The translations under genes were made by a program, and so were the position numbers. This document shows positions 11,460 through 62,565 of a stretch of DNA of 62,565 nucleotides, piece after piece. Each line of letters starts with the position of its first letter. The first letter of the stretch is position 1. Under the pieces are notes generated by a model. It was not told the DNA's origin. It worked only from the letters and a program-made list of their open reading frames with translations, and searched no databases. This DNA comes from Proteromonas lacertae (lineage: Eukaryota), in NCBI GenBank assembly GCA_002245135.1, contig NGBS01000622.1, forward strand, positions 1 to 62,565, written 5' to 3'.

Positions 11460-12917
11460 TTAATACTTCCCTTCTTTCTGTATCTGTTCAATTTTGGCAT
11501 CATAGAGATTTAACATTGTAGTTATCCACTCTTGCAAAGCACCAATACAACGACTATACTGGTTCACATCATTCACATCAATATTCTTAACAGCATTTCT
11601 TATATTTTCTAAAATTGGAGCATCATAAGCAGTCATATGTTCTTCAATATCAAATCTTGAAAATTCAATAACCAAAGAATAACCATAGAAATTCTTAAGA
11701 TAATTCCACTGACTCATTTCAGTTATATTCATATCAAACTCTTCTTCATTAATATGATCTGTCAAGTATAAACCACACATTAATATCTTTAATGGACCAG
11801 GTCTAGGCATCTTATCATACCTTCTAATCTCAGCAAATTGTGATCTCAATGATAAAATAGTTTTTACAGCATATCTCACTCTTCTTTTTAAAGTACTCAT
11901 TCTTCTAGCTAAATCATCACTTGGACTATCTTCATCCATCGGAAATTCACCATCAAACGACTATATTTTTAGTAATATAATACAAAATATATATACAAAT
12001 GAAGCACTATTTCTTCTAGAAGTCTTCAATAATTGCATTTGATAATCTGCAGTTTGATCAGACAAATCTTCAATCTTTTGTCTTGTTTCATTAATTTCTT
12101 TTTCCTTTTTCGCATTTTCAGTTTCTATATCTTTTGCTCTTACTCTCAGCGATGTAATTTTTTGACCAATTAATCTCACTTTCTCATTTCTATCTCTCAA
12201 CTCCTTTTGAAGTTCTTTTTCCATATTATCCTTCTCTCTCAAGTTCTGACGGAATTCTTCTAATTGTTTCTTTAAGACTTTATTATCTTTTGAAGCTTCA
12301 CTTAATTGATTATCTTTCTTCATTATTTGTTCTTTTAAATTAAGTATACGACTTTTATCATTACGAAGGAAGTTCAATTTTGATTCTAAATCTTCGTTTT
12401 TCTTTCTAAAATCGTTGATTTTCTCTTGTAACAACTTTACTCTTTCTTTTTGAGCTGCAATTTCTCTCTCTTTGTGATGAGTTCTACAATAATTCCATTT
12501 CTTTATTAATTCATCTAATTGACCTTTTAAACGAGTTATTGTTTTAATATCTACCAATATTTCTCTTTGTAACTGTGACTTTTCTGCATTTAAGGATTTA
12601 ATCACTATTTTGTTTTCTTTTAATGCATCATTTAATGATTTCATATCATCTTGTTGATTTTCTATTATTTGTACTTTCTCACTAAGAGCTAAAGCGTTTT
12701 CTTTACGTTTCACTTCCATTTCTTTCTTATATTGCGCTATTGTCTCATTCACTTGCTCTAGTTCATTTATTACTATATCTTTCTGTGATCTTCCATCCTG
12801 AAAAGCTTCATGTTTCGATTCATTCTCTTTTCTTATCTTATCAATTTCTTCTTGGAGTATGCCGGTCTTTTTAATTTCTTCGTTATATTTATATTCGAAT
12901 GTGTCCTGATTAGACAT
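11460..12917 (-). CDS. Coiled-coil protein with C-terminal dynein-MTBD-like domain (family member 1)
   Basis: ORFs 11961..12917 and 11460..11939 join in frame over a 36-nt GT..AG intron (11961-11996). Heptad rod, WNYCRTHH motif, and C-terminal AEIRRYDKMP...WNYLKNF...RFD...YSRCIGALQEW. Confidence 0.8.
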
Positions 12918-13033
12918 CCTACAGCAAAATATAAAAAAAAATCTGTTAGTCCTGAAACGACTCTAATTTTAGAATTTATTCCAAAAATAAAAAATTAATA
13001 TATATAAAGATTAGACATATATAGACTATATTC

Positions 13034-14569
13034 TTATTCATCATCATCGTCAGTTTTTAATTTCAAAGGTGAATGATAATCAGGACCAAAACGAGAAACA
13101 GGTTTAGCAATCATTGGTCTTTCTTTACCTTCTCTTTCTAACTGTTCTACCTTCGCATCATACAACATAAGCATAGTCTGCATCCACTCTTGTAAAGCAC
13201 CAATACAACGACTGTACTGATTAACATCATCAATATCAATATGAGCCATAGCTGTTCTAATATTCTCTATAATCGGAATATCATAGTCACTTAAATGTTC
13301 TTCAATATCAAATCTTGAAAATTCAATAACCAAAGAATAACCATAGAAATTCTTAAGATAATTCCATTGTACTATCTCTGTGATTTCCATTCCAAATTCT
13401 TCTGAGCTAATATGATCTGTCAAGTATAAACCACACATTAATATCTTCAAAGGTCCAACTCTAGGCATCTTATCATACCTTCTAATCTCAGCAAATTGTG
13501 ATCTCAATGATAATATTGTTTTTACTGCATATCTTACTCTTCGCTTTAAAGTGCTCATTCTTCTATAGAAATCATCTTCTTGTTCTTCTTCATTCTCTAT
13601 ATCTGCACCTTCAAATGAGAAACTGTTACTACCTCCTGCACCATTACTTGTACTTCCTCGTCTTGATGTTGGTGGTTTTGGAATTTGATCTTTTACATCT
13701 TCCAGTCTCTTGTTTTCTTCGTCTAATTTAGAAGTTTGCTCTGCTAATAATCGATCTTTTTCATCTCTTTCTTGCTCTAATTCTTTTAATTTGTCTTTTA
13801 ATCCTACAATACGTTTACCAATTGATTCTATTCTTTCGCCTTTATCTCTTATTTCTTTTTGAAGATCAGATTGGAATAAATCCTTTAATCTGATATTTTC
13901 TCTCACTGAATTTAATTGATTTCTTAATTGTTGGTTCTGTTTATTTATATCACTGTAAGCACCTTCTTTGGCTCTTAATTGATTCTTTAAATCTAATAAT
14001 TCAGGATCTTCATTTTGAACTCTATCACATTCACGTTTTATATCATCATGTTGATCTTGTAAATTTTCTAATTCTTCTTCTAAACCTGCTACTTCTGCTC
14101 TCTGTGCAGCTATTTCTTGTTCATTATGGTGAGTTAAACAATACTTCCATTTTTTGAGGTATTCTTCTATTTGTTGCTTTAAACGATCAATTTCTTTTTG
14201 ATGTACACGGATTTCTTGGAGTAATTTCTCTTTTTCGGATTTAAACTTCTTGATTGTGGTCTTATCCTCTTTAGCTCTTGCTGTTAATTCTGAAATTTCA
14301 TTTGCTTGTTTTTCTATTGTTTGTTCTTTATTGGCCATGTTCACTTCGAAATCTTCTAATTCTTTCTCACATTGTTGAATATATTCATTATGTTTATTGA
14401 TTCTATTTTCTTTTGTTTTTCTAAGCTCTTCCCTTGAGGATTGATTGCCATCAACAATACCTTCAAACCTTTTTGAGAAATCTTTCAGCATTTTAAGCTG
14501 TTTTTCAAGTGAATTATTTACCTGAAGTGCTTCTTTATACTTCCAACCATAAATTTCATCAAAATCCAT
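13034..14569 (-). CDS. Coiled-coil protein with C-terminal dynein-MTBD-like domain (family member 2, tandem paralog of member 1)
   Basis: Intronless 511-aa ORF; WKYCLTHH motif; C-terminal domain nearly identical to member 1. Confidence 0.85.
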   Translation of the reverse strand: MDFDEIYGWKYKEALQVNNSLEKQLKMLKDFSKRFEGIVDGNQSSREELRKTKENRINKHNEYIQQCEKELEDFEVNMANKEQTIEKQANEISELTARAKEDKTTIKKFKSEKEKLLQEIRVHQKEIDRLKQQIEEYLKKWKYCLTHHNEQEIAAQRAEVAGLEEELENLQDQHDDIKRECDRVQNEDPELLDLKNQLRAKEGAYSDINKQNQQLRNQLNSVRENIRLKDLFQSDLQKEIRDKGERIESIGKRIVGLKDKLKELEQERDEKDRLLAEQTSKLDEENKRLEDVKDQIPKPPTSRRGSTSNGAGGSNSFSFEGADIENEEEQEDDFYRRMSTLKRRVRYAVKTILSLRSQFAEIRRYDKMPRVGPLKILMCGLYLTDHISSEEFGMEITEIVQWNYLKNFYGYSLVIEFSRFDIEEHLSDYDIPIIENIRTAMAHIDIDDVNQYSRCIGALQEWMQTMLMLYDAKVEQLEREGKERPMIAKPVSRFGPDYHSPLKLKTDDDDE

Positions 14570-17624: not shown

Positions 17625-18823
17625 CTATGACATTAACTCCTTCTCATTCATAGCTGTATCATACAAACCAATTAATCCATTTAACCAATCATATATTGCG
17701 CCAATCACTGATGAAGCAGAGTAAACTTCCTTACTATTACATTTCTGAATTTGTTCTCTTATTATACCTATCTTCTCTTTCACTTCGTCATCATCAAGCT
17801 TATCCATGATGTTATACTCAGATATTTCAACCACCAACGAATATTTAAAGAAATTTCTAATATAATTCCATTGAGCTAGTGTCAAGGAACTACTATTCAC
17901 ATCAACTTCATGATTCAATAAGTGTAAACAACATATGATGGTAATAATTGCATGGTTGTTTTGGAATAGTATCATATCTTCTAATTTCCTGAAATTGTGT
18001 TTTTCTATCCACTACAGCCTTTACAGCCTCTATTTAATTAAAAATAAAAAAAAAAATCAATACTATCCACATTCTTCTTAGCTTTTTGTAATTCATTCAC
18101 TTTATGTTTATCTGATTCCTCACCTGCTTTCCTCATTAATTCATCTGTCTGATCTGCATAATCTTGTAATTTGGCTGTCAAATCTTCAATAATTGCTTGA
18201 AGATTATCAATTGTTGAATCTTTCTCTTGATTCTCTCCTTTTAATCTTTCTATTTCTTCGTTTAATTCCTTTACTTTTCCTTCTAATGCAGAATCATGCA
18301 TTGTAGATGGTGGTGGAGGTATTTTTGATGGAGATGAAGCTGCAGATTGTGATGATCCATCTAATGATGAGTGATTTGCAACACAAAATCTTACTTTCTC
18401 TTCACAAAGTTCATACCTCTTCTGCAATGCTTCAAACTCTTTTTGGAGATTGTTATATTTTATTGTAGTTGTATTTAAATCACTTTCTAACAATTCATTC
18501 TTTTGTTGAGTTATTTTTACTTCTTCCTGCATATTACCTATATCAGCAATATATTTCTCTAATTTCAATTGGTTTTTACTCAATTCTATTTGATATTCTT
18601 TAGTCTTTGTCTCTAAATCCTTTTGATGCTTATCATTCTCTAAGATAAGGTCTGACAATTGTTTTGATAACTTCAATTCTTTATCTTGTCCAACTTTCAA
18701 TAATTCTTCTGATTTAGAATTCTTCGCTTTTAAAAAAACTATTTGTCCTTGCAATTCACCATTCTTTTGAATGGAATCACAGAACTTTACTTCATACAAG
18801 TCTTCCGTTGTGTTTAAAGGCAT
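17625..18823 (-). CDS. Coiled-coil protein with C-terminal dynein-MTBD-like domain (family member 3, divergent)
   Basis: Rod with EKVRFCVANH; intron near 18030-18063; then AVKAVVDRKTQFQEIRRYDTIP, a 1-nt frameshift, and NHAIITIICCLHLL...WNYIRNFFKYSLVVEISEYNI...SSVIGAIYDWL..LYD, homologous to members 1 and 2. Confidence 0.75.
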
Positions 18824-19024: not shown

Positions 19025-21442
19025 ATGGCTGATGTACCTATTGATGTTTTAAGAATGTCGTATGATCAGAGCTTAGAGAAACAAAAAGCTCTGCAACAAG
19101 AACATAAGGCTATGCAAGACGAATTGACGAAGTGTAAGAATGTGTTGTCAGAATTTAAAGAAAAGGTGGATACTTATCAGCAGCAAATTAAAGAAGTTCA
19201 AGAAAGCAGTAGACAGAAACAAGGTGAGTTAGAAGAAAAACTAGCTACTTCTGGAGCTTTAATGAAAGAAAAAGATATAACCATCGAAACAGAAGGGCAA
19301 AGAAATACATTGCTCGATGAAAAGATTAGTGTATTAGAAAGAAACGCACAAATGCTTAATGAAACAATAGAAGAGAAGAATTTAATAATCCAACAGAATA
19401 AGGACGAATTAAAGCGATTAGATGATATAAATGCAGAATTTGAAGAAAAAGTTACATTTTGTATAGAAACTCACACTCCTCAAATAAAAGAGTTAGAAGA
19501 TAAAATTGCTGAATTAACAAAACAATTATCATCTGCACAGAATGATACATCTTCTAAAGAATTAATAGAATCAATGCAAAAACAAAATAATGATTTAGCT
19601 AAAGCAAAGAAAGAATTAGAATCTAAAGTGAAAGAATTAGAAGGTAATAACAAGACATTGAACAACGAATTATCAAAGTCTCAAGCTAACAATAATGAGC
19701 TAACAAATGCACAAAAAGAATTGGAAAACAAATTAAACAAAAGTGAAGAAAATAACAAAATATTAGAGAATGAATTAAAGACAATGAAAGATAATAATCA
19801 AAATATGGCACAATCAAAGAATCAATTGGATACAAAATTAAAGGAATTAGAAACTAAATCCAAGTTATTAGAAACTAAAAACAATGATTTAGAATCTAAA
19901 TTAAATCAATCAAATCAAAAAGTGAATGAATTAAAGAGCCAATATGAGGAAATTCAAAAACAATCCAAATCTAATGATAACACAATGAATGCAGAGTTGA
20001 ATAAAGTTAAGAAAGAATTAAATGATATGAAAGAGAAGTATACAAAATTAGATGATGAATTTAAAAAGAGTCAAAATGCTAATAGTCAGTTGCAAAATAC
20101 AGTTAATGTGAATAAGAACCAATTAGATGATTTGAAGAAGAAATTAGATAAATCGAATGAAGATATGGCTAAATTGAACAAAACAATTGCCAATTTGAAT
20201 ACTATTATAAAAGGAAAAGATAAAGAGATTAATGACTTAAAGAATGAATTATCAAAATTGAAAGATGAAAATATGAAGTTGAATAACAAATTGAGAGATT
20301 TAAATGGCAAATTAAAAGAATCTCAAAGCAAACCAAAAGAAGATACTAACATAGCCGTTTCATTTGCGCCAATGAAAGATAAAAAGATCGCTAAAGAATG
20401 GACTTGGTTGAATGAATTTGAAAATAACCCAGAAACTAAAGGAAAGTTACTATTATCAGAGTTAAAAGGTCATAAGAGTGGTGCTAGTAGTTGTGTTTTC
20501 TCAACAGATTGTACAATGATTGCTACAATGGCTAAAGATGGTGGCATTATTATCCACAATATTACTCATTCATCTATCTCTAATGAGTCAAGTTCTTCAC
20601 GTTATAACATCACATGTCCTGATGATTATGTTTGTGCTACAACATTTACTGGTGATGATAAGTATCTAGTATGTGGTTTAGGTGTTAGTAAATGTGTTAA
20701 TATTTACTTTATTCCACCATTTGGTAGTAGTAATAAACAACCTGAATTGTGGAAGACATTTAAAACTGATGCTAAAGAACCATTATTAGGTATTTCTGTC
20801 TATCACAGTGGTGAAAAAATGGCAATAGTAACTTGTGAAATTGGTAATACAGCTTTATTAGTGTATGATGTTAATGGTAAAGTCGTTGATAAACAAGTGA
20901 ATAGAACTCAAAAAGTGTTTTATTCAATGACATCATCACCATATTCTCGTTTTATTGGATTTTCTGGCAGTTCCAAAGATGCATTTGTATTTGAACCAAA
21001 ACATAAAGTTAATGGTGATTTTACTAACTTATCAAGAGTATTACAAGTCTTACATTCTGATAGTATTATTGGTTTAGGTATTGGTAACAAATGCGATCAA
21101 ATTATAACAATATCCAAAGATGAAACTATGAAATTATGGGCGATTGATGTGAGATATTTTAATGCTAGTTTGATCAAGAATTATCCATGCAGATTGAATG
21201 TAAGTTATGCTATGTTGAGTGAAGAGAATTTGTGTATTATATTGATATGCGAGAATGATATTTACTTCATTCATTGTGCTAATGGTGAGATTATTACAAC
21301 AATTGAGAATCCACATAACTGTAAGATTATTTTCAGTTGTATTGCTGGTAATGGACGTGCTATTGCGACAATTGGTGAGAAAGATAATGATATTAAGATT
21401 TGGATGATTCCTCGTGGAATGAAATTCACAGATAATGTATAA
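19025..21442 (+). CDS. Coiled-coil protein (same N-terminal rod family) fused to a C-terminal WD40 propeller, TBL2-like
   Basis: 805-aa ORF: about 440 aa of heptads with EKVTFCIETH, then ELKGH...FSTD...ATMAKDG, SKDETMKLWAIDVRY and IKIW WD repeats. Confidence 0.8.
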   Translation: MADVPIDVLRMSYDQSLEKQKALQQEHKAMQDELTKCKNVLSEFKEKVDTYQQQIKEVQESSRQKQGELEEKLATSGALMKEKDITIETEGQRNTLLDEKISVLERNAQMLNETIEEKNLIIQQNKDELKRLDDINAEFEEKVTFCIETHTPQIKELEDKIAELTKQLSSAQNDTSSKELIESMQKQNNDLAKAKKELESKVKELEGNNKTLNNELSKSQANNNELTNAQKELENKLNKSEENNKILENELKTMKDNNQNMAQSKNQLDTKLKELETKSKLLETKNNDLESKLNQSNQKVNELKSQYEEIQKQSKSNDNTMNAELNKVKKELNDMKEKYTKLDDEFKKSQNANSQLQNTVNVNKNQLDDLKKKLDKSNEDMAKLNKTIANLNTIIKGKDKEINDLKNELSKLKDENMKLNNKLRDLNGKLKESQSKPKEDTNIAVSFAPMKDKKIAKEWTWLNEFENNPETKGKLLLSELKGHKSGASSCVFSTDCTMIATMAKDGGIIIHNITHSSISNESSSSRYNITCPDDYVCATTFTGDDKYLVCGLGVSKCVNIYFIPPFGSSNKQPELWKTFKTDAKEPLLGISVYHSGEKMAIVTCEIGNTALLVYDVNGKVVDKQVNRTQKVFYSMTSSPYSRFIGFSGSSKDAFVFEPKHKVNGDFTNLSRVLQVLHSDSIIGLGIGNKCDQIITISKDETMKLWAIDVRYFNASLIKNYPCRLNVSYAMLSEENLCIILICENDIYFIHCANGEIITTIENPHNCKIIFSCIAGNGRAIATIGEKDNDIKIWMIPRGMKFTDNV

Positions 21443-24531: not shown

Positions 24532-25642
24532 TTATTTATTTGTTGAAAGATCAATATTACCGTCAAATAAAGGATATCTATGTACTGTCACACAACTACC
24601 TATTGATTTCATACAAGAGGAATAGTCATCTGTTTTTAAGCATCTTCCACTCCACAACATACTCAACAACCCAAAAGTGCTCTGATTGGTAATTATAAAA
24701 TATGTACTGTGAATCAGTAATAGCAACTCTCTCAATGAAGTATCATCAAACATATTTTTAAGATAATGTTTTTTCTTAGAAGATAATTTAACATTGGTGT
24801 TGTACTGAGTATTTTTAATTCTTATTTTATTTAAAATATTACTATCATCACCTAATATAATCCACTTTGTATTTGTCTTATTTATACTGTAATGAACTGC
24901 TTCTTCCTCAAACAAATTCTTTTCATTTTCTGTTAAAAATTTTCTAGAATCTTTGAAGTCACCGTTTCCTGTTCTTATGTGAATACCAACAACATTTGTG
25001 TATATGTAGAACATGTTTTTGTACTTGTTGTATATTCTAAAGTATTTATCTTTGAGATGTATAACTTTGTTTAAAATATTGTATTGCATCTCTAAATATA
25101 GCTTTCTAGGATTATTTTCATTGACATTTGATATTAACCTTCGCTCATACAATATTTGATTGTTATTTTTGTTTGAAGCTATATGAAAAGATATATCACA
25201 CCATAAATTACTAAAACAAAGGTAACTGTCATTATTTGATAGGATATCTTCAACTTCTTGGCGACTCATTTTACATAAATCGACCCTAATGCAAAAATGA
25301 AAAGAAGAATCAACAAAATTAGGGAAGGGAGTAGCGAAGTAGGAATCAAACTCATCCCACCATAATACTATCAATATTATAATAATGATTATACTTTTAG
25401 GCAGGTGATTAAACACCAAAGACATAATAATCACTTCATTGACAGATTTAATTCTATTCCCAATTCCTCCGCTCGTATATTCATAGTAGGATCGATTATG
25501 TGACTGAATGCACCAAGAATGATATTGACTAGGAATAGAACTACACATTCTTTTATAATTCAAGTATTTATTAGGAGCACAGAGGATAAGATAGTATCAC
25601 TGATATGATAAATAGTACAACATAGGTTATATATTTGTTCAT
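24532..25642 (-). CDS. GT-B fucosyltransferase-like glycosyltransferase (GT11/GT23/NodZ-like motifs)
   Basis: GGIGNRI, VGIHIRTGNGD, ILGDD and STFG motifs; N-terminal anchor MNKYITYVVLFIISVIL is joined by a frameshift. Confidence 0.7.
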
Positions 25643-26113
25643 AATAACTCTATAAAAGAACAACGCTTAACACTTTTTGAAAATGTTTGATGATGGTTTG
25701 AATCAAAAAATCTTTGTTCAAACATTTTTATTGTGGATTGTATGAGTGTAGCAATCTTGATTACAATCAAAAATGATAATTTAAGATGAATTTTGTAATG
25801 TAATAAGCTGTTTGTGCTGTGTAATTTATTTTTCAGATTAATATAATTTGTCAGTTGTCTTGGCAAATAAAAATATAAAAAGAAATTAAACGAAAGACAC
25901 GTTTGCATAGTATCAAAACAGCATATCAACCTCAAAATACTTCATTTCTTAATATCTCTAAGTTTAAACTATCGCTACACCTCTATAAAAATAGTATCAT
26001 TATAATAAAAACTATAAAGATAGAATTATCTATTTAACTAAACAGAAATCTATAAAAGCATAAAAAGCAGTTTAATTTTAAGGGGGTAAATAATTAAGAA
26101 CATTTAAAATAGG

Positions 26114-26836
26114 TTGGTTTATATACTACAAAAAATGTGTAATTACTATGTGCTAGGTATTATAATGGTTGTATTAGCGTTACCTTTACTATCATTTTTA
26201 ATTTTGTCACCCTCAAAGTGTGTATGCAAGGAAGAATTACACAAAAAAGGGATTTCAAACAGCAAAAGTCAATTTAACCAAGATATAACTATGTACTTTA
26301 AACATTTTATGAATAAAACGAATGGTGTATTCGTTGAAATAGGCGCATTTGACGGAGTGTCAATTAGTAACACCTATTTCTTTGAAAAGAACTTTAATTG
26401 GCATGGAATACTTATCGAAGGAGGTGAACGTAATTGTAAATTGTTGTTTGGCAATGCAAAAAAAAGAAGTAATTCAAGATTAGTTTGTTCTCCTATTTGT
26501 CAGTCAGAGTACATAAGCTTTAAAGAAGGAGGCACTGGAGGAATGTTAGATCACAGTAATAAACAACAGAAAAGAATAAAATGCAATACTCTTTCAAATA
26601 TCACACAATTCTTCAACATTAAACATATTGATTTCTTTTCATTAGATGTAGAAGGAAGCGAATTAGAAGTATTACAGACTTTTGACTTCAGAGTTACAGT
26701 TTCTCATTGGTTAATTGAATGGAATCATTTGAGTGATAAAATAAAGAGTGGAATACAAACGTTATTAGGTAGTCATGGTTATGTAAAATCAAATGAATAT
26801 ATTTCTGAAATTGATGTACTATTTAATCACACCTAA
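26114..26836 (+). CDS. FkbM-family (Methyltransf_21) methyltransferase with N-terminal membrane anchor
   Basis: GVFVEIGAFDG..ISNT.FFE..FNW.GILIE and IDFFSLDVEGSEL.VL; intronless; real ATG probably at about 26135. Confidence 0.88.
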   Translation: MVYILQKMCNYYVLGIIMVVLALPLLSFLILSPSKCVCKEELHKKGISNSKSQFNQDITMYFKHFMNKTNGVFVEIGAFDGVSISNTYFFEKNFNWHGILIEGGERNCKLLFGNAKKRSNSRLVCSPICQSEYISFKEGGTGGMLDHSNKQQKRIKCNTLSNITQFFNIKHIDFFSLDVEGSELEVLQTFDFRVTVSHWLIEWNHLSDKIKSGIQTLLGSHGYVKSNEYISEIDVLFNHT

Positions 26837-26927
26837 ATTGTTAATTAAATATATTTGTATGTGATAAAGGTTTAAAATATAAAATATTTAATACTTATAA
26901 ATAAAAAGACTGATATTATTACATAAA

Positions 26928-27677
26928 CTATACATAACATTCACCTTTCTGCATATAATGTCCAAAAGGATATGACATTAACAACAAATTGTAATGTTTT
27001 AAAATCAACCTTTTCTCCAATTCTGAATCTTCACGTCTATACCACTTCCAACTACTATCATATTTATTATTCATTAATATTTCTCTTTTAGCTGAAAGCC
27101 AAGCATTATGAATTGGTAAGTCTTTATCAAAATAGTAACAGCAATGTATTGCTTTACTATTTCTATTATTGTAATATTGTGAATATATAAAACTGTAATT
27201 ATAAGGTAGAATGTATTGAGTAATGTTATTAACATCGAATATATCAGTATCCAACATGGCTCGCTGTTCAACGTAAGTATGCAATGTAATATCTACATCT
27301 GGAATTGTTGTAAAGATTTTTATCACCTCCTGAATTGCATATTTTGAAAGAAAGTCGTCTATATCAAATATAGTTATTATTTCACACGTACTACAATCTA
27401 TTCCATAGTTTCTATTATCCGCTTGATTATGCCTTCCAGTACGATAAAAAAGGTTTATGGTTGTGTTGTCATTTTTACTCAGTGTGGTATTTTTATCATT
27501 TTCAGAATTACTAATTACTACAATTACTTCTTTTGGCTTCATTATCGTTCTTTCTAACATAAACAAAAACTGTTTGCTGCAAGAGTGCCAATCTTTCAGA
27601 GTAGATGCTGATATCAATGATACACATGGTAAACAATACACACTACTTATAAATAAATAGATAAAGAAGAAAAACAT
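26928..27677 (-). CDS. GT2-like (GT-A fold) glycosyltransferase
   Basis: Signal peptide; PKEVIVV, NRNYGI...EIITIFDIDD (DxD) and EDS motifs; intronless. Confidence 0.7.
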   Translation of the reverse strand: MFFFFIYLFISSVYCLPCVSLISASTLKDWHSCSKQFLFMLERTIMKPKEVIVVISNSENDKNTTLSKNDNTTINLFYRTGRHNQADNRNYGIDCSTCEIITIFDIDDFLSKYAIQEVIKIFTTIPDVDITLHTYVEQRAMLDTDIFDVNNITQYILPYNYSFIYSQYYNNRNSKAIHCCYYFDKDLPIHNAWLSAKREILMNNKYDSSWKWYRREDSELEKRLILKHYNLLLMSYPFGHYMQKGECYV

Positions 27678-27729
27678 AAAAATATACTTACTACTGTAAC
27701 GAATATATTTTTATTACTGAAAATTGTTC

Positions 27730-28904
27730 ATGAACAAGTACATGATATGTATGTTTATAGTACTAACGTCACTCTGCGTAATTTATTATTCAATACCTGT
27801 ATCTTCCACCAATAATAAAAAGCTTCTAATTTCAGTTGATGTGACTGGAGGATTGGCTAACAGACTCTTTGGTTTATCATCAAACTTTATTTTCTCTAGA
27901 CTTGGAAATTATGTACTCTCAAGTATACTTATATTTACATTATTATTGAATTAGTTTATTCTGTGGATTACTACAAGCTATATTTGGAAGATGTATCATT
28001 TTTAAATGTAGTACCAAAAGATAAGAAAGTAAAAATGTATGTTTCTTTAAATTTCTTTGAATACTGTATTTCAACCTGTGAAATGTACCACAATATAATC
28101 AAGTATAATAGTAGCATTAAAATAAGAAGTTGTCATGATATAATACCTTCTATGCTGAAATGCAATACATTTACAAAATATCTTGTTAAGAATAATTTAC
28201 TAACTGACTCGTACAATTTAGATATATATAAACAAACTGTTGAAATTAACAATTTGATATTTACAAAGTATATCCAACTAAAACAAGTAGAAACAAGTAA
28301 AGTGAAATATTTTGTATCAAAAATCAATTCCTTTTGTTCAATTGCTGTACATATTCGATATGATGATATTTGCATAACTGAGAATAAGTGTAATATAAGC
28401 AAAACAATGATAGATGGATATGTGAATATAATTAATAACATAGATATAAGAAAGAAATGTAATATATATATTGCTTCAACAAATGCGAGAATAATAAAGT
28501 CTTTGAGAAGTATTATTGGTTCAAGAGTTATAGAATATCTTCATGGAGTAAATCCAGCTCACAGTGGAATGGATTCAACAGTGAATAAAAGGAATAAAGA
28601 GATGAAAATTAGAAAGATTATTGGAGATATTTCTTTTTTGTCTAATGCAGATAGATTCCTCACAAGTAATTTAAGCACATTTTCATTGTTGATATATTAT
28701 ATTGGAGCAAAGCATAGAAATGGATCTATTAAACCAATGACAATAGTTGATTCAGTGAAAGGTAAAATAGACAAACTTCAAATATATGATCATCTTAGTC
28801 ACTTTAGAAAGAGAAATACAATATGTAAACCCTCACCATTCAACAATTTACTCGTCTATCCTTATCATTATATTAAATACAAGAGAAACAAGTATGTAGC
28901 ATGA
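27730..28904 (+). CDS. Second fucosyltransferase-like GT-B glycosyltransferase
   Basis: Type II anchor; GGLANRL, IAVHIRYDD, IYIAST and LSTFS motifs; one intron near 27923-27954. Confidence 0.72.
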
Positions 28905-28994
28905 TTGTATAATAATTTAAACTAATTCTGTTTGCATTTGATATTTTGTGTTAGTATGTAACGACATAAATAACATTTGTTTGAGCTTGATTTT

Positions 28995-29938
28995 ATGTTT
29001 TTGATTTTTGTCTGGTTAGCTAACTTTATTCTTTTATTTTATATATTTTTTAAAACTGCATATATGTTTAATCATTTAGAAAAACAGAGTAAATTGGATG
29101 CTTGTTTGGATTTTAATATTTCTCGTGTGAATAGTTACGTCATTTATAATTCGCTTATAATTCATACAATCGCATATGATGAAAGAATTCCTGGTTATAG
29201 GATATTAGGGACTGGAAAAGTGGATAATTATGTCTATTTTGATTGTTTGTTTTTCAAATCATATAAAAATGCGAAATGCACAGCGTATATTCAGAAAATT
29301 AACAGTAAAATGAAGGATGGGTTTGTCATATATGTTATAATGAAAGATATTAGTTTTAAACCTAAGTATGTGATGTTAAATGAGTATTGTTTACCTCTAC
29401 CACAACCTGTATCAATTAAAAAGCCACTTTATGATTATACACTCTGTGTTATTCCAGATACAACTGAAAAAGAAGAAAATTATAAAAGAGAATGGATTAA
29501 TCATAATAGAAGAATTGGAATTGAAAAGATTGTTATTTATAATTACCAAAATTCAGTTTTTATAAACACTAATGATAGTATGTTAGATATAATAGATGTT
29601 CAGGAGGGAAGTTCAACAGATATGATAATGAATGATTGTTTGTACAGATATAGAGCAATGTCCAAGTCAATTTTGTTTATGAAAATGAAAGAGGTGATAA
29701 TATTATTAAAAACTAATATGGAGATGAAATTGAGCAATTTTATTAAACAAAAAGATAGAGAATCATATGATATGATGTATTTGTGTAAATGTAGAACAGT
29801 AGAATAACACAAAGAATGTAGATTTTGATAAGATATCAAAACTGAAGCTAAAATGTGAAAATAAATATTCACACTCCTTCTTAATAGTAAATAACCCATT
29901 GAAATTCAATTATATAACACAGAAGGGTTATTTCGGTG
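28995..29938 (+). CDS. GT92-like glycosyltransferase, degenerate or frameshifted
   Basis: Type II anchor; REWINHNRRIGIEKIVIYN and MNDCLYRYR are GT92-like. The expected DxDE reads MKMKE, and the frame is broken near 29790. 3' end uncertain. Confidence 0.5.
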
Positions 29939-30107
29939 ATTATTGGTATTACAGTAAAACTAAAGTGAAAAAGAACATAATAGTTTTAGAAACAAATTAA
30001 CTATCGTATTATTATTTAGTTACTCTTGTTGTTGAATTTTTGTTGTAACTGAATAACAAAAACTCGGCTTGAAAACACATTATTTTTTGTTCCAAAATAG
30101 TCTTTAT

Positions 30108-31040: not shown

Positions 31041-31260
31041 CATTATATGTTAATTCTTTCTTATTTTATTATTCTTTTATAATCAACTCCAAAAACCAAT
31101 TGATTTTATTTTTCAAATATGAAATTCTATCATTAACATGAATATATATAAATATATTAAAATATCATTCTATGTCATTCAAAACAGGTGATATTTCTAT
31201 ATTTCTATATATATCCGTTTCAGTTTTCTAGAAGGTTTAATCTGCATTTTTTCTTCTAAA

Positions 31261-44848: not shown

Positions 44849-44966
44849 ATATCAACCTGAAATATAATCACATAAATTTAATTATATTTATTCATATAAT
44901 ATTAGCCAATAAAATTCTTTTGTTATATTATGTTTAAAAGAAAAAATAATAACAAAATAATAATAT

Positions 44967-50789: not shown

Positions 50790-52159
50790 TTAATCAAACT
50801 TAATTTTCTTATTCAATTTTACATCTCCATCAGCATTATAACCACCAAGTGGTCTTTTTACACCTTTATTCTCACTCTTACCTTTATTATTATAATTGTT
50901 ATTTCCACTTGTATTACCACCATTATTCTCAAATTGTCTCAATGTATCTTCCACTTTCTTCTTTCCTGCTACAGCAATAGTAGCACCAGTAGATTCACCT
51001 AATGCATCTACACGGATTGACAATGCAGTTTTAGCTGCTAATATTCTAGATATTTTACCTTTAATCTTAGTAGGAGCTTGACCAATCAATGAAGCATGAT
51101 AAATCAAACCATATTTGGGTGTTTCTGATTTAGTTTTTAATGCTCTAAAGAGTGCTTTTTCTGCTCCTAAAATTTGGACTGTTGATGCTGGATATTTAGC
51201 TAAGTTTAATAGACTACCTGCATGTGCAATTAACCTAGCACCGACTAATTCACCTACCATCATTGATAGATTAGGAGCAATTGAATTCATTCTGTTTTCT
51301 AAATATTCATATAATTTAGATCTATATTCACTCATTTCAATCACTTCTACACATAGTTTCTTTATGCTGTGGAAGATCTTCGTCGTTTATATCTGTTCCC
51401 ATGGAGATAATGGCTGTACTCTTCATTTCTTCTTCTACTTCACTCTCTAATATATCACTAAAATCTATTTCATTTGCATTCTTTCTAATACCCATTTTTA
51501 AAATCACTTTTGCATATTGTAAGTTGTCTAATACTATCTTTTGCATTTCTGGGAAGTGCCAACCATACCATTCCTTGATTCTCATTGCAAATGTGTTTAT
51601 TTCTTTATCCATTTCATCTAATAGACTGATGGCTTGAATTATCATAGTATCTACTTGATCTGCACTGAACTTCAGTTTGTATCTTCCTAAACTGTGTGCT
51701 AAGCCTAAGGTCATTGCGTGGATCTGCTCTTTATTCAATTGTGGGATTAAATTGTCTAATTGTTGTCTAATACCTCTTATGATCTCCATACAAGTGTCAT
51801 TATGTTTACATTTGATCGAGAGTGTTTCTTTAATCAATCCTCCTAACTTTGAATCAATTACACCTAAAGAATCTTTCAATTCTGCTTTTACTATATTTTT
51901 CTTTAAGAACTTTTGTAAGCTTTTGTCTAATTTCCCTTCTATTAATGCTGTAGATGCTGCTAAAGCTTCAGCAATATCATCAAATTTCTTAAATGCAAGT
52001 AATTTGACACTAATAATAAATTAAATACATTCAATACCTATTTGCTGCATCTTCAGGAGTTTGGAAGTGTGTGAATACTTCAGCTGGTTCACCTAACTTT
52101 TTTTCATCAAGAACCTTGAATAAAGCATAACCACCTGGTGTTTCGTATAAGATTAACAT
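50790..52159 (-). CDS. NOP58: Box C/D snoRNP protein Nop58
   Basis: [82 protein letters not shown]; one intron; frameshift near 51350-51375. Confidence 0.93.
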
Positions 52160-52538: not shown

Positions 52539-55500
52539 ATGGATTTAGACACACCAGCTGAGATTTTACTCTATTCATATCAAGAAGAACTTAAAGCTCG
52601 TCAAGAACTACAAGATACAGTAGAGAATCTTAAGAGTGATAACAAGAACTTGAAATTGTTTTTCGAACATATCAAGCTAAACAACGAACAACTATTATCT
52701 CAACAATTAGACTTAAAGAATCTCAATAGCAAAATAAAGAAAGATTTAAAGTCATGTAAAGTTGAAAATCAACTATTAAAAGAGTTCAACAAAAGAGAAA
52801 AGGAAGATTTCGAGGAAAAATATCAGTTGTTACAAGAAAAAATGATTGATGTAGAAAATGAGAATAGTGTGCTTAAAATGAAGGATGAAGAAAATCAAAA
52901 TGAAATACAAAGGCTTAATGAAGAAATTGAAAGGTTAAAAAACCTGAACAACGATTTAGAAAATAGATTACGAAAATTAATAAAGCAAAATGCCAAACAG
53001 AAGGAAGATTTCAGCAAAATTCAGACATTTTTACGAAATAAGCTCGATAATCAAAAGAAAGAGTTGAATGAAGATAAAAGTAAAGCAAAGGAATTACAAA
53101 AGAAAATAGATGATAAAGATGAGACAATTGTTAGATTAATACAGGAATTAAACGATATAAAGAAAGAACTTGATCCATCTAGCACAGCTGAATTGAGAAA
53201 GAAATTAGATGAATTAAAGAAAGAAGAGAATGATATGGAAGATGATTTAAGAAGAAAGAAAGAGGAATTAATCAAATTAAAATCCTCTCCATCTGTTGAT
53301 CCAGAGAAAATCAGTTTATTAGAAGAAGATATAAAGAATATTGAATCTAAATTATCAAATATAAAAGATAAATTGAATGAGAATGAGTTGAAGTTAGAAG
53401 AATTAGAGAATAACAAACCTGAAAATGAAGAAGAGATGAAAGAATATAAAGAAAAGCAACAAGAAATCTTGAAGAATTTACAAGAGATTGAGAAAGAATT
53501 GAATGATATAAAGAATGATGATGTAAATGAAGTTAATAAATCAATAGAGAGATTAAACACAATGAATGAGATAATCGAAGATATGAATAAGAAAGAGCAA
53601 TTGCAAAATGAATTAGAAAATAATGTAAAAGAAATGGATAGTAATTTCAAACAATTAGATGAAGATGATTTCTTAGATGAATGTAAATTATATAATGGTG
53701 AAAATAGAGGTGGTGGTGATGAATCAATGAATAATGGGAATGAGAATGAAATAGAAGATCCAAAGAAACAGAGTTATTTGAATGCTTTAAATGAATTAAA
53801 TGAAGAATTAGAAAGGAAAAGACAAGAATTAGATGATTTAAGAAATGATTTAGAAAGTCTGAAAGAGAAAGAGGAAAAAGAAAATAATGAAGAGATAAAT
53901 AAATTACAGAATCATGGAAAGAGAATTAGAGAATAAAATGCAAGAGATAAAGAGCAACAATGATGAATTGAAGAATTCTTTAAATCAAATAAAGAAGGAA
54001 TTATATGTAAAAATACAGAAACAAATACCTGATAATGAAAATGAGCTGAAAGATTTAATGAAATTGAATGAAGAATTAAAGAAAGAGAATGAAGAATTGA
54101 GTTATAATGAGAATTGCAATCAAGGAATAATAGAAAGAAATCAAGAGAATTTATGTGAAAATGAGACAAAAATGAATGAATTGAAAAGTAAAATAGATGA
54201 TTTAGAGAGTAATTTAAAAGCTTTAGAAGATGAAGAAATAGAAAATATATCAGTTGAAAGTCTAAAGAATTTAGATAAAGAAAACAAAGAGAATGAAGAT
54301 GAATTGAAAGAATTGAAAGATAAAACTTACTGAGATTAAAGATTCAATTGATAATAGTAAAGAATTATTGTTGTTGAAACAGAGTATTTGTGATATGCAT
54401 GATGAATATGATGATTGTAATAGACAATGTGAAAAATTCCGAGAAAAATACAATAAATTAGCATCAAGTAAAACAATAGAAAGTGAAGAACTAACTGATA
54501 TAAATATGGAATTATGTGATATTGAAGGTGATTTAATGAAATTAGATAAAGAAATCGAAAATCAAAATCGTCGTGTTAATTCAATCAATGAAGAAGATAC
54601 TGACAAATGTAAAGAATCAATAAGAATCAATAAAGAGAATGACACATTATTAAGAGATAAATTAAAACAAGTAAAACATAAGTTAGATACATATTCAATC
54701 AATATGGCTGATGTAGAAACTGACACATTGGAATAAACTATTAGATGATACAAATGGTTATTTACAGATGAAAGAAAGAATAATAGAAATAGGAAAAGAG
54801 TTAAATGATGCCATTAAATGAAAATGAATCATTAAAAGATGAGAATGATGTATTAAAGAAAGAAGTAGAAGAAGCATCAGCTAATACTAAAAGATATAAA
54901 ATCCAATCCTGATTATTCATTAGATACAACATTATTGAATGAATATTTGAGTGAAAGAGTTGAAATATTAGAAAATGATTATAATCGAATCAATTCAATA
55001 GCTGATGAAAATGAAAAAGAGATTGAAGAATTAAAGAATAAAAATGACAATAATAATTCAAGTATGAATGAATCAATAAAAGAAATTGAAGAGAAGAATA
55101 AGAATATTCGAGAAGAATTAAAGAAAATTGAAAGTGAATTGAAAGAAGAAAGAAATTTGGCTGATAAATATGAAACTGATCCAAATGCAGGAAGTGATAT
55201 ATTAGTTGATTTACACAGTAAATTGTTGAAGACTGAGAAGAATATAAGAAACTGTGAAAGAGATTTGATGAATGGAAATGAAATTAGTAATTTTGATGAA
55301 ATGGAAACATTGAAAATTCAAGTAGAAGATTTACAGAAATCTTTAGAAAATGCCAAAGATGAGAATGATAAATTGAATTATAAAAGTTTAGAAAGAAGAT
55401 TAAAAGACTTAAAGAATGAAGAAAAGAAATTAGAAAAAGAAATAGGAAGAAATAAGAGAGATTTAAAATCAATAAGTGAAAAAGAAATAGGTAAAAGTGA

Positions 55501-58500
55501 AAATGGAATAAATGTAAATAACTCATTAAATGACATAAATGATTCTAACAACGAAATAAAAACTGAAATTAGCGAATGTGAATCAATGTTAAATGATTTA
55601 AAGAAACATGAAAATGATTATAGTAGTGATGAAAAAGATGAAAAATATGATAATATAGAGAATAAGATAAATGGTATTGAAGAAAAAATCAACAATTGTA
55701 ATGAAGATATTGAAACAATAAATGATATGATAAAATGTCTTAAAGATAGTGATAATTTAGTTGATAAACTAAAAGATAATAATAAATTATCTGATGAAAT
55801 ATCAAATGATTTAAATCGAATGTTAAATGAATATGAAGATTTTGAAGAACCAGATTTCTTAGATAGATGTAAAATGTATAGAAATGATGATGATGAAGAT
55901 GATAATGATAATGATAATGATAATAATGATAATGAAAATAAAGATGAAGAGCAGAAAAAACAAAGTTATATAAATGCAATAAACCAATTGAGTGAAGAAG
56001 TAGAAGAAAAGAAGAAAGAATTAGAATCATTAGAAAATGAGATAAATCGAAATTATAATTCTGCTAATACAACTCCAAATACAACACCAAGAAGTCCAAG
56101 AACACCCAGTGAAAATCGAAGAGCATTGCGATTAAAAGAATTAGATGAAAGAAATGATGAAATTAAGAAAGATTTGAAAGATTTAAACAATAAAAGAAAT
56201 AATTTGAATAAGAATTTAGAGTTAATGAAATCTAATCTTTACAATAAGATGTTAAGTGAAATACCTACAATAAAAGAAGATTTAAAAGAATTGAAGAAAG
56301 AAAATGAAGATGAGAAGAAATCATTAAAAGAATTTGAATATGATCCACATAATGATAATGAGTTTTCCAACAAATGTAATGAAGAGATTCGTATTAATGA
56401 AGTAGAAATAGAAGATTTAGGAAAGAGATTAGATGAAAAAGAAAATGAAATAAAGAAAACAATAAAGAATGATTTGAGTAAAATCTCAGTTGAGAATTTG
56501 AAGAATCTCAAAAATGGTTTAGATGAATTAGATGGAAAAGTGAAAGAATTGAAAGATAAATCTAAAGAATTAGAAGATAATATAGATTTAGAGAAAGAAT
56601 TAATAAAAGAAAAGAATAACTTAGAACAACTAGAAAATAAATACAAAGAAATCAATGATAAGTTAAACAAATGTAAAGATCAATATGAGAATATAAAAGA
56701 GAATGAAAATACTGATAAAGAGAAAGTAGAAGAAAGAAATAAGAAATTGAATGAAATGGAAGTTGAGTTAAATGAAATTGGTGATATGATAAATGATGAA
56801 AAGATAAAACTAGAAGAATTGAAGATTGGTGAAGATAATGTAAATTGTAAGAAAGAATTAAATGAAAGTAAAAACAATCAAAAGAAAATAAATGAAAGAT
56901 TGAATGATATTGATTCCACTTTGTGTAATATGTCAAATGAGTTTTTATTAATAGAAAATGATCCTCTAAAAATAATGGAAGAATTAGAAAAAGCCAAAAA
57001 TGCTTTGAATGAATTAAATGATGGAAATGAGATGATGAATGAAGAAGTTGATAGATTAGAAAGAAAGAATGAAGAAATAAATGATGAATTAGAGAGATAT
57101 AAAGAAAAGATTCAGTCATTAGAAAATGATTTATATAATGCAAATAATCGAATAGAAGATGATAAACAAGAAATAGAAGATTTATCAACTCAATTAGAAG
57201 AAGCAAATAAGACAATATCTGAAATAATGTTAAAACCAAATAATGATGATAGTAGTTTAGTTGGTGAATATTTGAATAATGAAATAGAGATGTTAGAAAA
57301 AGAAATGAAAAATGTGGAAAAAGAGTTAAAAATGAAAGAAAAATTATATGAAAATTATGAATTGAATGAAGAATTGTGTGAGAAAGAAGAAGTAAAAGAA
57401 TTAAAAGAGATATTATCATTTGTAAAACCATTATTAGATGAATGTAAAAAAGAAGTAGAAGAAGAAAAGGAATTAATGGATAGATATGAAACAGATACAA
57501 ATGCTGATAATTCCATATTAATAGAAATAAGTAATAAAATGAATATAACAAAGAGTCATTTAGGAGAATGTAAAGATAAATTGAATGAGAATAACATATT
57601 GCTATTAAATGAAATGGAAAGAGTGTGTAGTAGTAAAAATGAGAATAATCTGAATAATATGGATAAAATATTAGAAAAGATGAAAAGTGATTTAAAAGAA
57701 ATGAAAAATGAGTATAATGAATTTGATGAAGAAGATTTTAATGATAAATGTAAAATATATGATGATATTGAAGAAAGTGATGAAGATGTAAAGAAAATGA
57801 GTTATGCGAATAGTTGTGATAGATTGAATGAGAAAAGTGAAGAGAATCGAAGTAAATTAAAAGAAATCAATAAGAAATATGAAGGTGAAGAAAAATTGAA
57901 AGAATTAAAAGGATTAAGAGAAAAGATGATGAAATGTAATTTGAATAAGAGTTTATTGAAGAAGAATTTAGATGAAATGAAGAATGACTTATTGAATAAA
58001 CTAATACATAAATCAATAGAAGATCAACATGAATTGAAAAGAATGAGAGAAAAGAATGATGAAACAAAAGAAGTAATAATGAAGTTAAAAGATAGTAATA
58101 AAATGAATAATGAGAATTTGAGTGAGAATGAGATAATAAACAATCGAAATAAGAAAGAAATGGAAGAAATAGAAAATGAGTTGATGAAACTAGAAAAAGA
58201 ATTAGAAAAGAAGAGTAAAAATATAAAAACAAGTGATGTTGAAAGTTTAAAGAATTTAGAAAGTGAATTAAAAGAAATAGAAGAAAGAATGAATGAATTA
58301 AAGGAGAAAGAGAAAGAAATCAAACTGTCAATATCCAATGAAGAAGAAATACAAAAGATGAAGAAAGAGATGGAAGAATTAGAAAAAGAATGTAATGAAT
58401 ATACAAATGAATTAACAAGATTGAAAGAAAAAACTGAAGATTTAAAAGAAGAAGATAATAATAATAATGATAATATGAGTGATTCTAAATATGAAGAATT

Positions 58501-61500
58501 AAAAGGTAAAGAAGCTGAAATTGAAGATAAACTGAATGTAATAAAAGAAGATATTGAAAATGTAAATAATGAATTATACTCTTTGAGTGACGAAGAAGTG
58601 AATGAACAGAATGAGATAATAAAGAATGAACAAGAATCAATCAATAAAATTAGAGAAGAATTGAAAGAAGTAAATAATTTATTGAATGATTTAAAGAATG
58701 ACAATGAAATACTGGTGAAAGAAGAAGAAGATGCTTCATTGAAAAAGAATGGATTTAATGAAGAATTAGAAAATCTGAGAGAAGAATTAAATGAATTGAA
58801 TGAAAAAATGAAGAATTATGATGAATTAAATACCAAATATATAGAGAATTACCTTGATACTTTGAAAGAGGATGAAAAAGAATTGGAAGAAGAAATAAAT
58901 AAAGAGGAAGAAGAAATGAAAAAATCAAAGAATGAAGATTATATGGAAAATGAAAGTTTGCTGAAAGAAATAAAAGAAAAAGATAAAAGAATACAGAATG
59001 GTTTAAAAGAAAGTGACAAATTAGTGAATGAATTAAAGAAATGTAAAGAAGATGAAAAAGGTGATAAATATAATGAATTAGACAATAAATTAGATGAGAT
59101 AAAAGATGTATTGAGTGAATGTAAAAAAGAAATGAAAGATTTAAAGAGAGATAAAGAATTATTTAACAAAAAGAATGAAAATGAGAAGTTATTAAATGAG
59201 ATGAATGAAAATATCTCCAATTTGAATGATAGTTTTAATGAATTAGATGAAGATGACTTCTTAAACAAATGTAAATTAATCGATAAAAGTAAAAGAGAGA
59301 ATATGAATAAGAAAGAATCCTATTTAGAAGGAATAGAAGAATTAGATAATGATTTAAAGAAATATGAAAATGATATGAATGATTTAAATGAGAGAATAAT
59401 GAATGAATCAATGAACAGAGGTGATGATGATGATGAAGAAGAAGAAGGTGAAGAAGGAAATGAAGAGAGAAGAAGAAGAAATAGTGAAAAAGAAATGAAA
59501 GAAATATGTGAAAGAGAAAATGAATTAAATAAGAAGTTAAAGACAATAGAAAAGAAGAAAGATGAATTAAAGAAAGATTTAAATATGATAAAAGATAATA
59601 TAATTAACAGAATGAATAATGATATAAATGAGGATGAAAAGAAGTTGAAGTCAATGACAGAAAAGAATAAGAAATTGGAGAATAAATGCAATGAACTATT
59701 AGCTAACTATGAAATTGAAGATGAAAGTGAATTAAAGGATAAAAAAGAGAAATTACAAAGAAATGGAGAAGAAATGAAAGAATTAGAAAATCAATTAAAG
59801 AAAATTGACAATACCTTAAAATCATTAAAGAAAGACAATAATGAAGAAAATACTGAAGATATAAAGAAATTAGATAAAGAATTAGAAGAAATAGAAAATC
59901 GAATGAATGAAATCGGAGAAGAAGAGGAGATAAACAATTGGTTAAAGAATGAAGAAGAATTGTTAAAAGCCAAAGAGAATTATAAGAATTATGAAAATGA
60001 ATATAATGATTGTAAAGATCAAATAGAAAAGAATAGAATGAAATGTGATGAATTAAAAGAGTAAAGAATTGATGGATGAAAAATCAATAAAAGAATATGA
60101 AGAAAAATTAGAGAATTTAGAAAATGAGATGAAAGAAATAGAAAAAGAAATCAAAGAAGGAAAAGACTTAATAAATGAAATAGAAGAAATGGATGATGAA
60201 GAAAAGAGAAAAGAATTATTCAAAGAGAATAAAGAAAAAGAAAAGAAAATAAATGATAAATTGAATTATGTAAAGAATGAATTAGGCAATATGAATCATG
60301 AGATGTTAATAAATGAAAATGACAATAGTAAATTGATAGATGAATTGAAGATGTTGAAAGAAGAAAAGAAAGATTTAGAACAAGCAATGAATCAATTAAA
60401 TGAAGAAAGTGAAAGAAGAAATGAAGAATTTACATTTGACAAAGAAAGATTAGATAGTTTAGAGAATGAATTAAACAGAAAAATCCAAGAATTGAATCAA
60501 ACAAAAGAGAAACTAGAAGAAGCTGAGAAAGAATTAGAAGAAACAAAGAAATATTTAGATGGATATGGTTTAAAAAAAGGTGATTTAGATGAAGCAACAA
60601 TGATCGATCAAATGAATGAAAGAATTGATATATTAAATGAAGATAATGAGAAGTTGAAGAATATAAAAGAAGAATTAAAGAAGAGTATAGAATTGTGTGA
60701 TGAAAAATGAGTTATTGAATGGAAAAGAAGAGATAAAAGAATTAGATGAATTATTAAATGAAACAGAAGGATGTATAGGAGAAATAGAAGAAGAATTAAA
60801 GAAAGAAAAGAATGATATAGAAGATTATTTATTAGATACATCTGAAAATAGTCAAAACTTAGAAGAAATCCGAAAGAATATATTAGAAAGTGAAAAGAAA
60901 GGAAAAGAAATGAGAGAAAAGATATTAAACAAGTTATGTAATATAAGCCATAATAATGTATTTATAAATGAAATAAATGAGTTAAATGAAAAAGTAAAGA
61001 GAGTAAAGAGAATAGGATGAATGAACTAAATAGTTTAAAGAATGAATTAAATGAAATTGACAATGAGAATGATGAAATGGAAGAAAGATTGAAAGGATTG
61101 AAAGAGAAATTAAAAGAATTAGAAGAAAGTGAAAATCCTGATGAAAATGAGATAAATAAATATAGAAATGAGATAAATGACTTAGAAGAGAGAATATCAA
61201 ATAATAAGAAGTTAAAGAAAGAAATTGAAGAAAGAATTAAAAGAATGGAAGAAGGAGATGAAGAAATAGATGTAAATGAATTGAATGAGATTCGTAAAAG
61301 TATGAATGAATTAAAGAGAACAGTAAAGATTGTAATAATAAACTAAACAGTTTAAATGAAAATCTAAAAGACTATGTAATAAAATGGATAGTAAAAATGA
61401 GATAAAAGAATTGGGTCGATTAAAGAAATTAATAAATAAAGAAGAAGAATTAAATGAAAATTCAATATTAGAAATAATGAAAACAATAGAAGAATTAGAA

Positions 61501-62565
61501 AAGAATGAAAATGTAATAAAGCCATAGTAAAACGAATAAAAATCAATTCTTTGAAAATAAAACAAGAAATTGAAGATAATAAGAATAATGTAAAAGAATT
61601 GAACGAATTAGATTTGAATAAAAAAAGACAAGTGCAACAATGAAAGGAATGAATGATTTATCCTTAAAAACATTAAATATTCGAAATCATTTAGATACAG
61701 TTCATAAGATGTTAGATGAAGTTATATAAATGATTTAAATAATTTGAAGAAAGAAGTGATAGTATTGAAAGAGAAAAATGAAAAATTCGAAGAAATGAAA
61801 GAAAAGAAAGAAGAATTAGAGAATAATAATAAAGATATGAGTGAAGAAATAGAAGAAATGAAAAAGAGGATAAAAGAATTAGAAGAAGAGTTAGAAAAGA
61901 CAAAATTAGAAAGAGATGAATATGATAGTGGTTGGAAATGTTGTAAAGAAAATACAAAGAAATTATTGAATGAAATAAATGAATTAAAAAGTAAAGTAAG
62001 TGAATTAGAAGAAGATTGTCAAAGAAAAGAAGAAGAAAGAATTCACCAAAAAGAATTGTATGATAATTTATATAAAGAAATTCAGAAAATGAAGAAAGTA
62101 TTAAAGAAGCCTGAAGTATATGAAACTCCTGAAATCGCTGAATTAAAAAGATGTGTAGGATTGGCTCGTCAAGCTGTAATGAGTGCAAAAGCCTCTTATG
62201 CTGAGATTAGAAAATATGATCAACCACCACCACATAATCCAATGAGAATAATGGGATGTTTCTATTTATTAGGTTATTTACAAAAGCTCAATTTATTAAT
62301 GGTTTAACTTATGAAGGAACAGATATAAAAGTTCCAGAAAAAGATTCTTGGAATAGTTTAAGAACTTATATTGATTATCAATTTGTGAATTCAATGGTGA
62401 AATATGATGTATTAGATGAGAAAAATGAAGATGAGAAAGAAACAATAGAATTAATTCGACATGAACTTCGACAGTATAAAGCTGAAGAAATAAGTCAATA
62501 TTCGAAAGCTTTTACAGTTTCGTACAATTTATTAAATGCCTATTTGATTTATATGATGCAGTAAA
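52539..62565 (+). CDS. Giant (>3,000 aa) acidic coiled-coil protein ending in a dynein-MTBD-like domain (family member 5); broken by many frameshifts, probably runs to the window end
   Basis: Consecutive E/K/N/L-rich ORFs on one strand. The N-terminus DTPAEILLYSYQEEL resembles DVPIDVLRMSYDQSL of the 19025 gene. The C-terminus AEIRKYDQPPP...WNSLRTYIDYQFVNSMVKYD...EISQYSKAF is homologous to members 1-3. Confidence 0.7.

Follow-up and report, generated by a model that had tools for sequence, protein, structure and literature searches.

Motor-less coiled-coil rods with a dynein-type microtubule-binding domain in Proteromonas lacertae

The stretch of DNA analysed here (62,565 nucleotides; contig NGBS01000622.1 of assembly GCA_002245135.1, Proteromonas lacertae), which we call the window, carries four paralogous genes, A to D, that join a coiled-coil rod to a domain homologous to the tip of the dynein stalk, the microtubule-binding domain (MTBD). 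The dynein tip is usually regarded as inseparable from its motor, but no motor accompanies it here. From the sequences and one predicted structure, we propose with moderate confidence that these proteins are lineage-specific rods with a dynein-type tip, which would serve as ATP-independent microtubule tethers or cross-links of differing reach. What is new is the rod series with its swappable tip, while the motor-less domain is of an already known kind. The genes and their domains are the following:

11460..12917, minus strand: gene A, about 474 residues, with the shared N-terminal coil, a rod, a linker and the MTBD-like domain; a 36-nucleotide intron lies at 11961-11996
11469..11900, minus strand: MTBD-like domain of A, which shares 83% identity with its counterpart in B
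13034..14569, minus strand: gene B, 511 residues in a single intact open reading frame, with the rod (about 1-310), a linker rich in Pro, Gly, Ser and acidic residues, the MTBD-like domain and a short tail
13097..13618, minus strand: mini-stalk and MTBD of B as modelled, consisting of coiled-coil segment 1 (CC1, model residues 3-37), a six-helix core and coiled-coil segment 2 (CC2, 137-162)
17625..18823, minus strand: gene C, about 385 residues, with a 34-nucleotide intron at 18030-18063 and one frame break near 17955, within the domain
52539..62565, plus strand: gene D, a giant coiled coil whose roughly 3,300 codons are spread over about 16 frame pieces; it has four internal repeats and is truncated where the window ends
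62134..62565, plus strand: MTBD-like domain of D, in frame pieces and incomplete at the window end

Four copies of one domain

The motifs EIR[RK]YD and WN[YS][LI][RK] and the helix-6 motif occur in that order at all four loci; apart from these, the window has a single match to any of the three patterns, an isolated WNSLK. A six-frame profile scan of the whole window recovers four copies of the domain, with E values from 1e-70 to 1e-18 (7e-6 for the H1 piece of C), and finds no fifth copy below E 0.1. The homologous domain that the initial annotation had seen in four genes is thereby confirmed. Next to the 83% of A, identity to the domain of B is about 31% for C and about 20-38% for D, depending on the piece. 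When the A and B proteins are compared along their length, identity is 73-97% in the domain and 17-63% in the rods. In the DNA (11469-11900 against 13127-13558), the domains are 77-91% identical over most of their length and the rods about 43-69%, and this likeness of the domains may reflect either strong constraint or partial gene conversion.

The heptad periodicity of the rods is well above that of shuffled sequences (power 23-37 versus about 8), and the rods are graded in length, as had been claimed, in the order C, A, B and D, with D counted over its frame pieces. The reported absence of AAA+ and P-loop sequence also holds, since the only two Walker-A-like strings are out of coding frame or contain a stop, which leaves no in-frame Walker A, and no dynein Pfam family is matched in the 10 window pieces scanned. 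That all four genes end in the domain is true of A, B and C, which stop soon after it; D is cut by the window end and a D-like relative (P0046) runs about 125 residues further, so that the domain of D is not established as C-terminal. D contains about 15 frame changes, none of them a convincing intron, which are probably assembly errors. A frame change also interrupts a Nop56/58-type gene (50790-52020, minus strand), within the Nop (Pfam) domain; a Nop-domain snoRNP gene is normally essential. From this split within the same window follows that the breaks in C and D are most simply explained as assembly indels.

Unlike that of dynein, the domain of the window genes lies below Pfam detection. 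Single-sequence searches gave no useful match in Pfam, PDB or a word-indexed homolog search (0/279 candidates); Pfam MT (PF12777) was not matched at E<=1 by any of 10 pieces, and the best single-sequence score in the ESM Atlas was 0.81, which is chance level. A profile of the five window pieces alone ranks the yeast dynein MTBD first with E 0.011. This value falls to 1.5-2.2e-6 for deeper profiles that include relatives, and is 7.7e-4 with lineage rows only. All PDB matches below E 0.01 are dyneins for both of two deeper profiles (9/9 and 8/8). For an RSP2-type relative, a class described below, the ESM Atlas links the domain to MT clusters with a score of 0.93. A profile check against Pfam MT and PDB, as had been suggested, thus succeeds for PDB, where dynein MTBDs come out on top, and fails for PF12777 with single sequences.

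An AlphaFold model was obtained for the domain of B only, from a 21-row alignment, and it applies to the other three domains by homology; a single-sequence fold was unusable, with a predicted local distance difference test score (pLDDT) of 41. The model has a pLDDT of 92.9 and a predicted template-modelling score (pTM) of 0.86, and in it a long helix leads into a six-helix core, from which another helix returns; as modelled, the core between CC1 and CC2 is the dynein MTBD fold. Foldseek returns nothing at E<=0.001, with its top ranks held by dynein MTBDs at probability 1.0, of which the first is the mouse MTBD 6rzb (template-modelling scores 0.62/0.70, E 0.06). In a VIA comparison with 48,161 chains, the best match is 5ayh (Z 14.2, root-mean-square deviation [rmsd] 3.4, 149 aligned residues), and the 11 highest-ranking rows comprise only dynein stalks and the motor-less proteins described below, followed by unrelated folds at Z <=5.6. 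Dynein stalk structures score Z 11-14, and the comparison with affinity states is mixed (yeast low-affinity Z 13.3, yeast high-affinity 11.0, microtubule-bound mouse 13.5). Homology to the dynein MTBD, first proposed from motifs, is therefore borne out both by profiles, which rank dynein first in PDB, and by a model that matches dynein stalks better than it matches any unrelated fold.

The likeness to dynein comprises the helix order, the fold, the E-I-R, W, (F/Y)D and S..G.L..W motifs and the helix-1 tubulin contacts. The window genes differ from the dynein heavy chain (PF12777; 6rzb, 5ayh, 3err, 6kjo, 2rr7) in that they lack the AAA+ ring, the linker and the tail, and in that the helix-6 arginine is lost. 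The long antiparallel stalk that returns to the ring is absent from the B model: CC2 ends after about 26 residues and is followed by the protein end or by coil. When the stalk has only about 26-35 residues per side, no motor could shift its register.

The N-terminal coil, the relatives and the origin of the domain

Two further features concern the other end of the proteins:

14090..14569, minus strand: shared N-terminal coil of about 150 residues, shown for B, ending in [YF]C...H
19025..21442, plus strand: a fifth relative, head-to-head with C, with the same N-terminal coil and Cys motif, a rod, and a WD40 propeller that replaces the MTBD

The cysteine of the [YF]C...H motif is found at residue 144, 144, 147 and 146 in A, B, C and the WD40 gene, respectively. 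When A, B, C, the WD40 gene and D are compared in pairs, 9/10 of the best ungapped diagonals are anchored at the start and consistent with one another, with scores for the WD40 gene and D that are no higher than other coils reach. The N-terminus of the WD40 gene is the only further match to a profile of the A, B and C N-termini (E 1.5e-4). The N-terminus of D falls in register with the shared coil without composition correction and disappears with it, so that its homology to the coil is only suggestive. Because A, B, C and the WD40 gene share the start-anchored coil, the Cys motif and the profile match, one and the same N-terminal module carries either an MTBD or a propeller, a relation absent from the initial annotation. 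We take the propeller to resemble TBL2; Pfam and PDB gave only generic WD40 matches for it.

An exhaustive homolog search across 1.84 billion representatives returned 17 proteins, with no dynein heavy chain among them. Ten are short fragments of the window family (A/B-like, C-like, D-like and further types), and C-like and D-like relatives come from other assemblies (P0051, P0046, P0049). The other seven are more distant and include P0060, in which a Dpy-30 motif occurs and whose sequence aligns along that of Chlamydomonas RSP2 (E 9e-5), and P0058, a CLAMP/C1a-32 fusion. A second search for longer homologs returned two RSP2-type proteins; it spanned 327-2,000 residues, and full dyneins could therefore not appear in it. 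Scans of metagenome contigs confirmed 0/98 and 0/272 stretches. For the domain, a lineage-only profile gives 38-57 bits to the seven distant relatives and two more RSP2-type proteins and 22 bits to the best PDB dynein, and an HH comparison with RSP2-type proteins has probability 98.5 (E 3e-15, 146 columns).

Among solved structures, the B model matches Chlamydomonas RSP2 (7jtk_C; Z 13.5, rmsd 3.2, 152 aligned), T. brucei RSP2 (9e5c_2e; Z 9.4) and the C-terminal region of a bovine sperm chain of 1,509 residues (9fqr_Xl; Z 11.6, rmsd 5.2, sequence E 0.064). The sperm chain, labelled AKAP14 in the file, is by its length probably EFCAB5, which has been described as a multi-domain stalk and bridge protein of radial spoke 3 that binds RGS22 (PMC11779644). 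It is motor-less like the window family but, unlike it, multi-domain and not a plain rod.

The RSP2-type proteins (7jtk_C/7jrj_I, 9e5c_2e; P0060, P0081, P0082) and P0058 are also motor-less and carry, as here, a C-terminal MTBD fold on a mini-stalk; structure, profile and HH comparison agree on this C-terminal domain, and outside the lineage no sequences are closer than those of the metagenomic RSP2-type members together with P0058. The window genes differ from them by their long rods, by the lack of a Dpy-30 or CLAMP anchor (Pfam finds no N-terminal Dpy-30 docking domain), by an intact E-I-R where RSP2-type proteins have E-L-Q/E, and by the presence of at least four paralogs within one 62-kb window.

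From the matches to RSP2, to the sperm chain and to a Toxoplasma chain discussed below (9ya2_L) follows that motor-less MTBD folds are old and widespread. Most likely, the domain was recruited from an older motor-less ciliary family of RSP2 type rather than newly from dynein; against this origin, the solved RSP2 chains are missed by the lineage profile at E<=10, while dyneins are matched. That it was newly excised from dynein within this lineage, as the initial annotation had it, is not supported, since the motor-less RSP2-type proteins and CLAMP fusion score higher and the motor-less fold is present in solved structures. The domain tree, which has no dynein rows and no root, cannot prove the direction of descent. 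Neither this family nor a motor-less MTBD in these proteins is described in any paper that a literature search brought up; two 2021 radial-spoke structure papers that may describe the RSP2 domain fall outside that search.

Tubulin contacts and possible functions

Six yeast residues form salt bridges between dynein and tubulin: K3117, E3122, R3124, R3152, R3159 and R3201 (Nishida 2020, PMC7042235). When they are mapped onto the window members through a HMMER alignment, the helix-1 equivalents of K3117, E3122 and R3124 are kept in 4/4 members, and also in 6/6 of the lineage fragments in which helix 1 is covered (these include two near-duplicate pairs), while the position of R3124 is Q or E in RSP2-type proteins. 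In helix 3, 4/4 members have one basic residue at the mid-helix position of Dictyostelium type. Together with the losses listed below, this pattern favours, but does not prove, tubulin binding that would be retained but weaker.

A Pro/Gly linker separates the long rod from the domain and there is no C-terminal partner helix, so that the rod would not be the stalk. From this would follow that the rod pairs with a second chain, so that each dimer would have two tips. A single scaffold would hold all members by their shared N-terminal coil, and helix 1 and helix 3 would provide the lattice-binding surface of the tips. Since the helix-6 arginine is lost, each tip is probably weaker than that of dynein, which avidity would offset. 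In this way, rod length would determine how far apart microtubules are held, with no need for ATP; at 0.1485 nm per residue, the reach would be at most about 33-47 nm in C, A and B and at most about 470 nm in D.

The best functional precedent may be a protein of Toxoplasma intraconoidal microtubule 1, chain 9ya2_L, which matches the B model with Z 8.1 (rmsd 3.2, 122 aligned of 162 residues). The chain is probably ICMAP2, assigned by residue range, since 162 modelled of 1,678 residues fit the "10%" of the paper and ICMAP1 does not extend as far as residue 1457. The globular domain of ICMAP2 binds the lattice at 8-nm periodicity, and loss of ICMAP2 separates the two microtubules (PMC12819142); an earlier paper reported no recognisable domain in it (PMC10774369). 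In the accessible parts of these two papers, a dynein-like fold of the domain is not mentioned. Like the proposed rods, ICMAP2 is a long motor-less protein whose small globular microtubule-binding domain holds two microtubules together, but its domain lies inside the chain, binds between protofilaments in dimeric form and gives no match at the sequence level. The precedent would apply if chain L is ICMAP2 and the Z 8.1 match is real.

Several observations weigh against microtubule tethering by the window family. The equivalents of R3201 (helix 6) and R3152 (helix 3) are absent from 4/4 members, and each of these residues is worth more than 2-fold in affinity in yeast (PMC7042235). The domain is net acidic, with 18 K+R versus 20 D+E in A and 17 versus 22 in B. 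In Chlamydomonas, the corresponding part of RSP2 reaches the spoke head surface and not the tubulin lattice (PMC10774353). For a helical domain, the ICMAP2 match is of intermediate strength, and gene conversion could explain part of the similarity between A and B.

The loss of the two salt-bridge arginines and the net acidic charge are also what would be expected if the fold had been kept and tubulin binding had gone, so that the domain would serve structural rods as a tip for docking other proteins, exchangeable for the WD40 tip. The nearest relatives are of RSP2 type, as the HH comparison shows, RSP2 and 9fqr_Xl carry the fold within radial spokes, and the WD40-tipped paralog shows the tip to be modular. 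The helix-1 contact triad is, however, intact here and broken in RSP2-type proteins, and a docking tip appears to us rather unlikely.

Genome setting and meaning

The GC content of the window is 27.1%, and its introns are short and of GT-AG type. Reported GC contents are 27.0% in Proteromonas lacertae and 21.5-23.1% in tortoise Blastocystis (PMC12129017), so that the window agrees with the flagellated Proteromonas and not with tortoise Blastocystis. In Table S5 of the same paper, Proteromonas has 27 dynein-stalk, 3 RSP3 and 2 C1a-32 entries, while eight Blastocystis strains have 0-1, 0 and 0, respectively. In trees, the Hsp60 of the window groups with Blastocystis but in a sister position outside both sampled clades (support 100/99 with 44 rows and a long branch; 88/98 with 18 rows), and in the 18-row analysis a position nested inside Blastocystis is not rejected by the approximately unbiased (AU) test (p 0.062). 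On balance, this one gene and the GC content point to a lineage that is opalinatan and probably flagellated; they weaken an assignment to Blastocystis proper and lend no support to the reduced flagellar machinery first assumed.

A lineage that is probably flagellated leaves room for the proteins to bind microtubules as normal components of the flagellar apparatus (axoneme, basal body or root), in which case they would be duplicated ciliary proteins and there would be no separate cytoskeletal system. All annotatable outside relatives are ciliary (Dpy-30/RSP2, CLAMP), and no named Blastocystis protein occurs among the 17 matches, all of which are unnamed proteins, although the collection includes Blastocystis proteomes. 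Against this, the window genes have no Dpy-30 or CLAMP anchor, a rod of more than 3,000 residues does not fit a spoke, and the N-terminal coil has no known ciliary match; we regard such a role as improbable. That C and D are pseudogenes, or D several genes, which would shrink the graded series to two similar genes, A and B, is suggested by the one frame break in C and about 15 in D, but it is very improbable given the similarly split Nop-domain gene, the repeats that link the pieces of D and the C-like and D-like relatives in other assemblies.

Elsewhere in the window, a glycine cleavage P-protein (39368-42217, plus strand) and the mitochondrial-type Hsp60 (31416-32993, plus strand) are consistent with a mitochondrion-related organelle. 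A mostly intron-poor cluster of glycan-modifying genes at 24532-38525 encodes an FkbM methyltransferase, GT2, LicD-like and GT92 proteins, together with several glycosyltransferase-looking open reading frames that have no Pfam match. Two overlapping frames at 8573-11085 (minus strand) may be one membrane protein with a signal-like start, a Thr/Ser-rich stretch, a transmembrane segment and a cytosolic PH domain. Tandem pentapeptide-like repeats (RG.[IM]P) at 44156-44867 run across two plus-strand frames, from either a frame error or a repeat protein.

Opalinatan gut protists have a microtubule-reinforced cortex with cortical ridges and links, known from older ultrastructure work. If the rods are indeed tethers, a bolder and in itself unlikely extension is that the family is the basis of this cortex: the N-terminal coil would polymerise into one scaffold or dock on it, and swappable MTBD and WD40 tips on rods of about 30-470 nm would set the spacing of microtubules, by means of a spoke-protein-derived domain that kept or regained the tubulin face of dynein. 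Together with RSP2, the sperm spoke protein and probably ICMAP2, the family suggests that the MTBD is a portable module, missed by Pfam, which protists have reused for static links. Natural motor-free tips on short stalks would give a handle on how affinity depends on stalk register and on the helix-6 arginine, and the genes described here are candidates for the cortical cytoskeleton of Blastocystis relatives.

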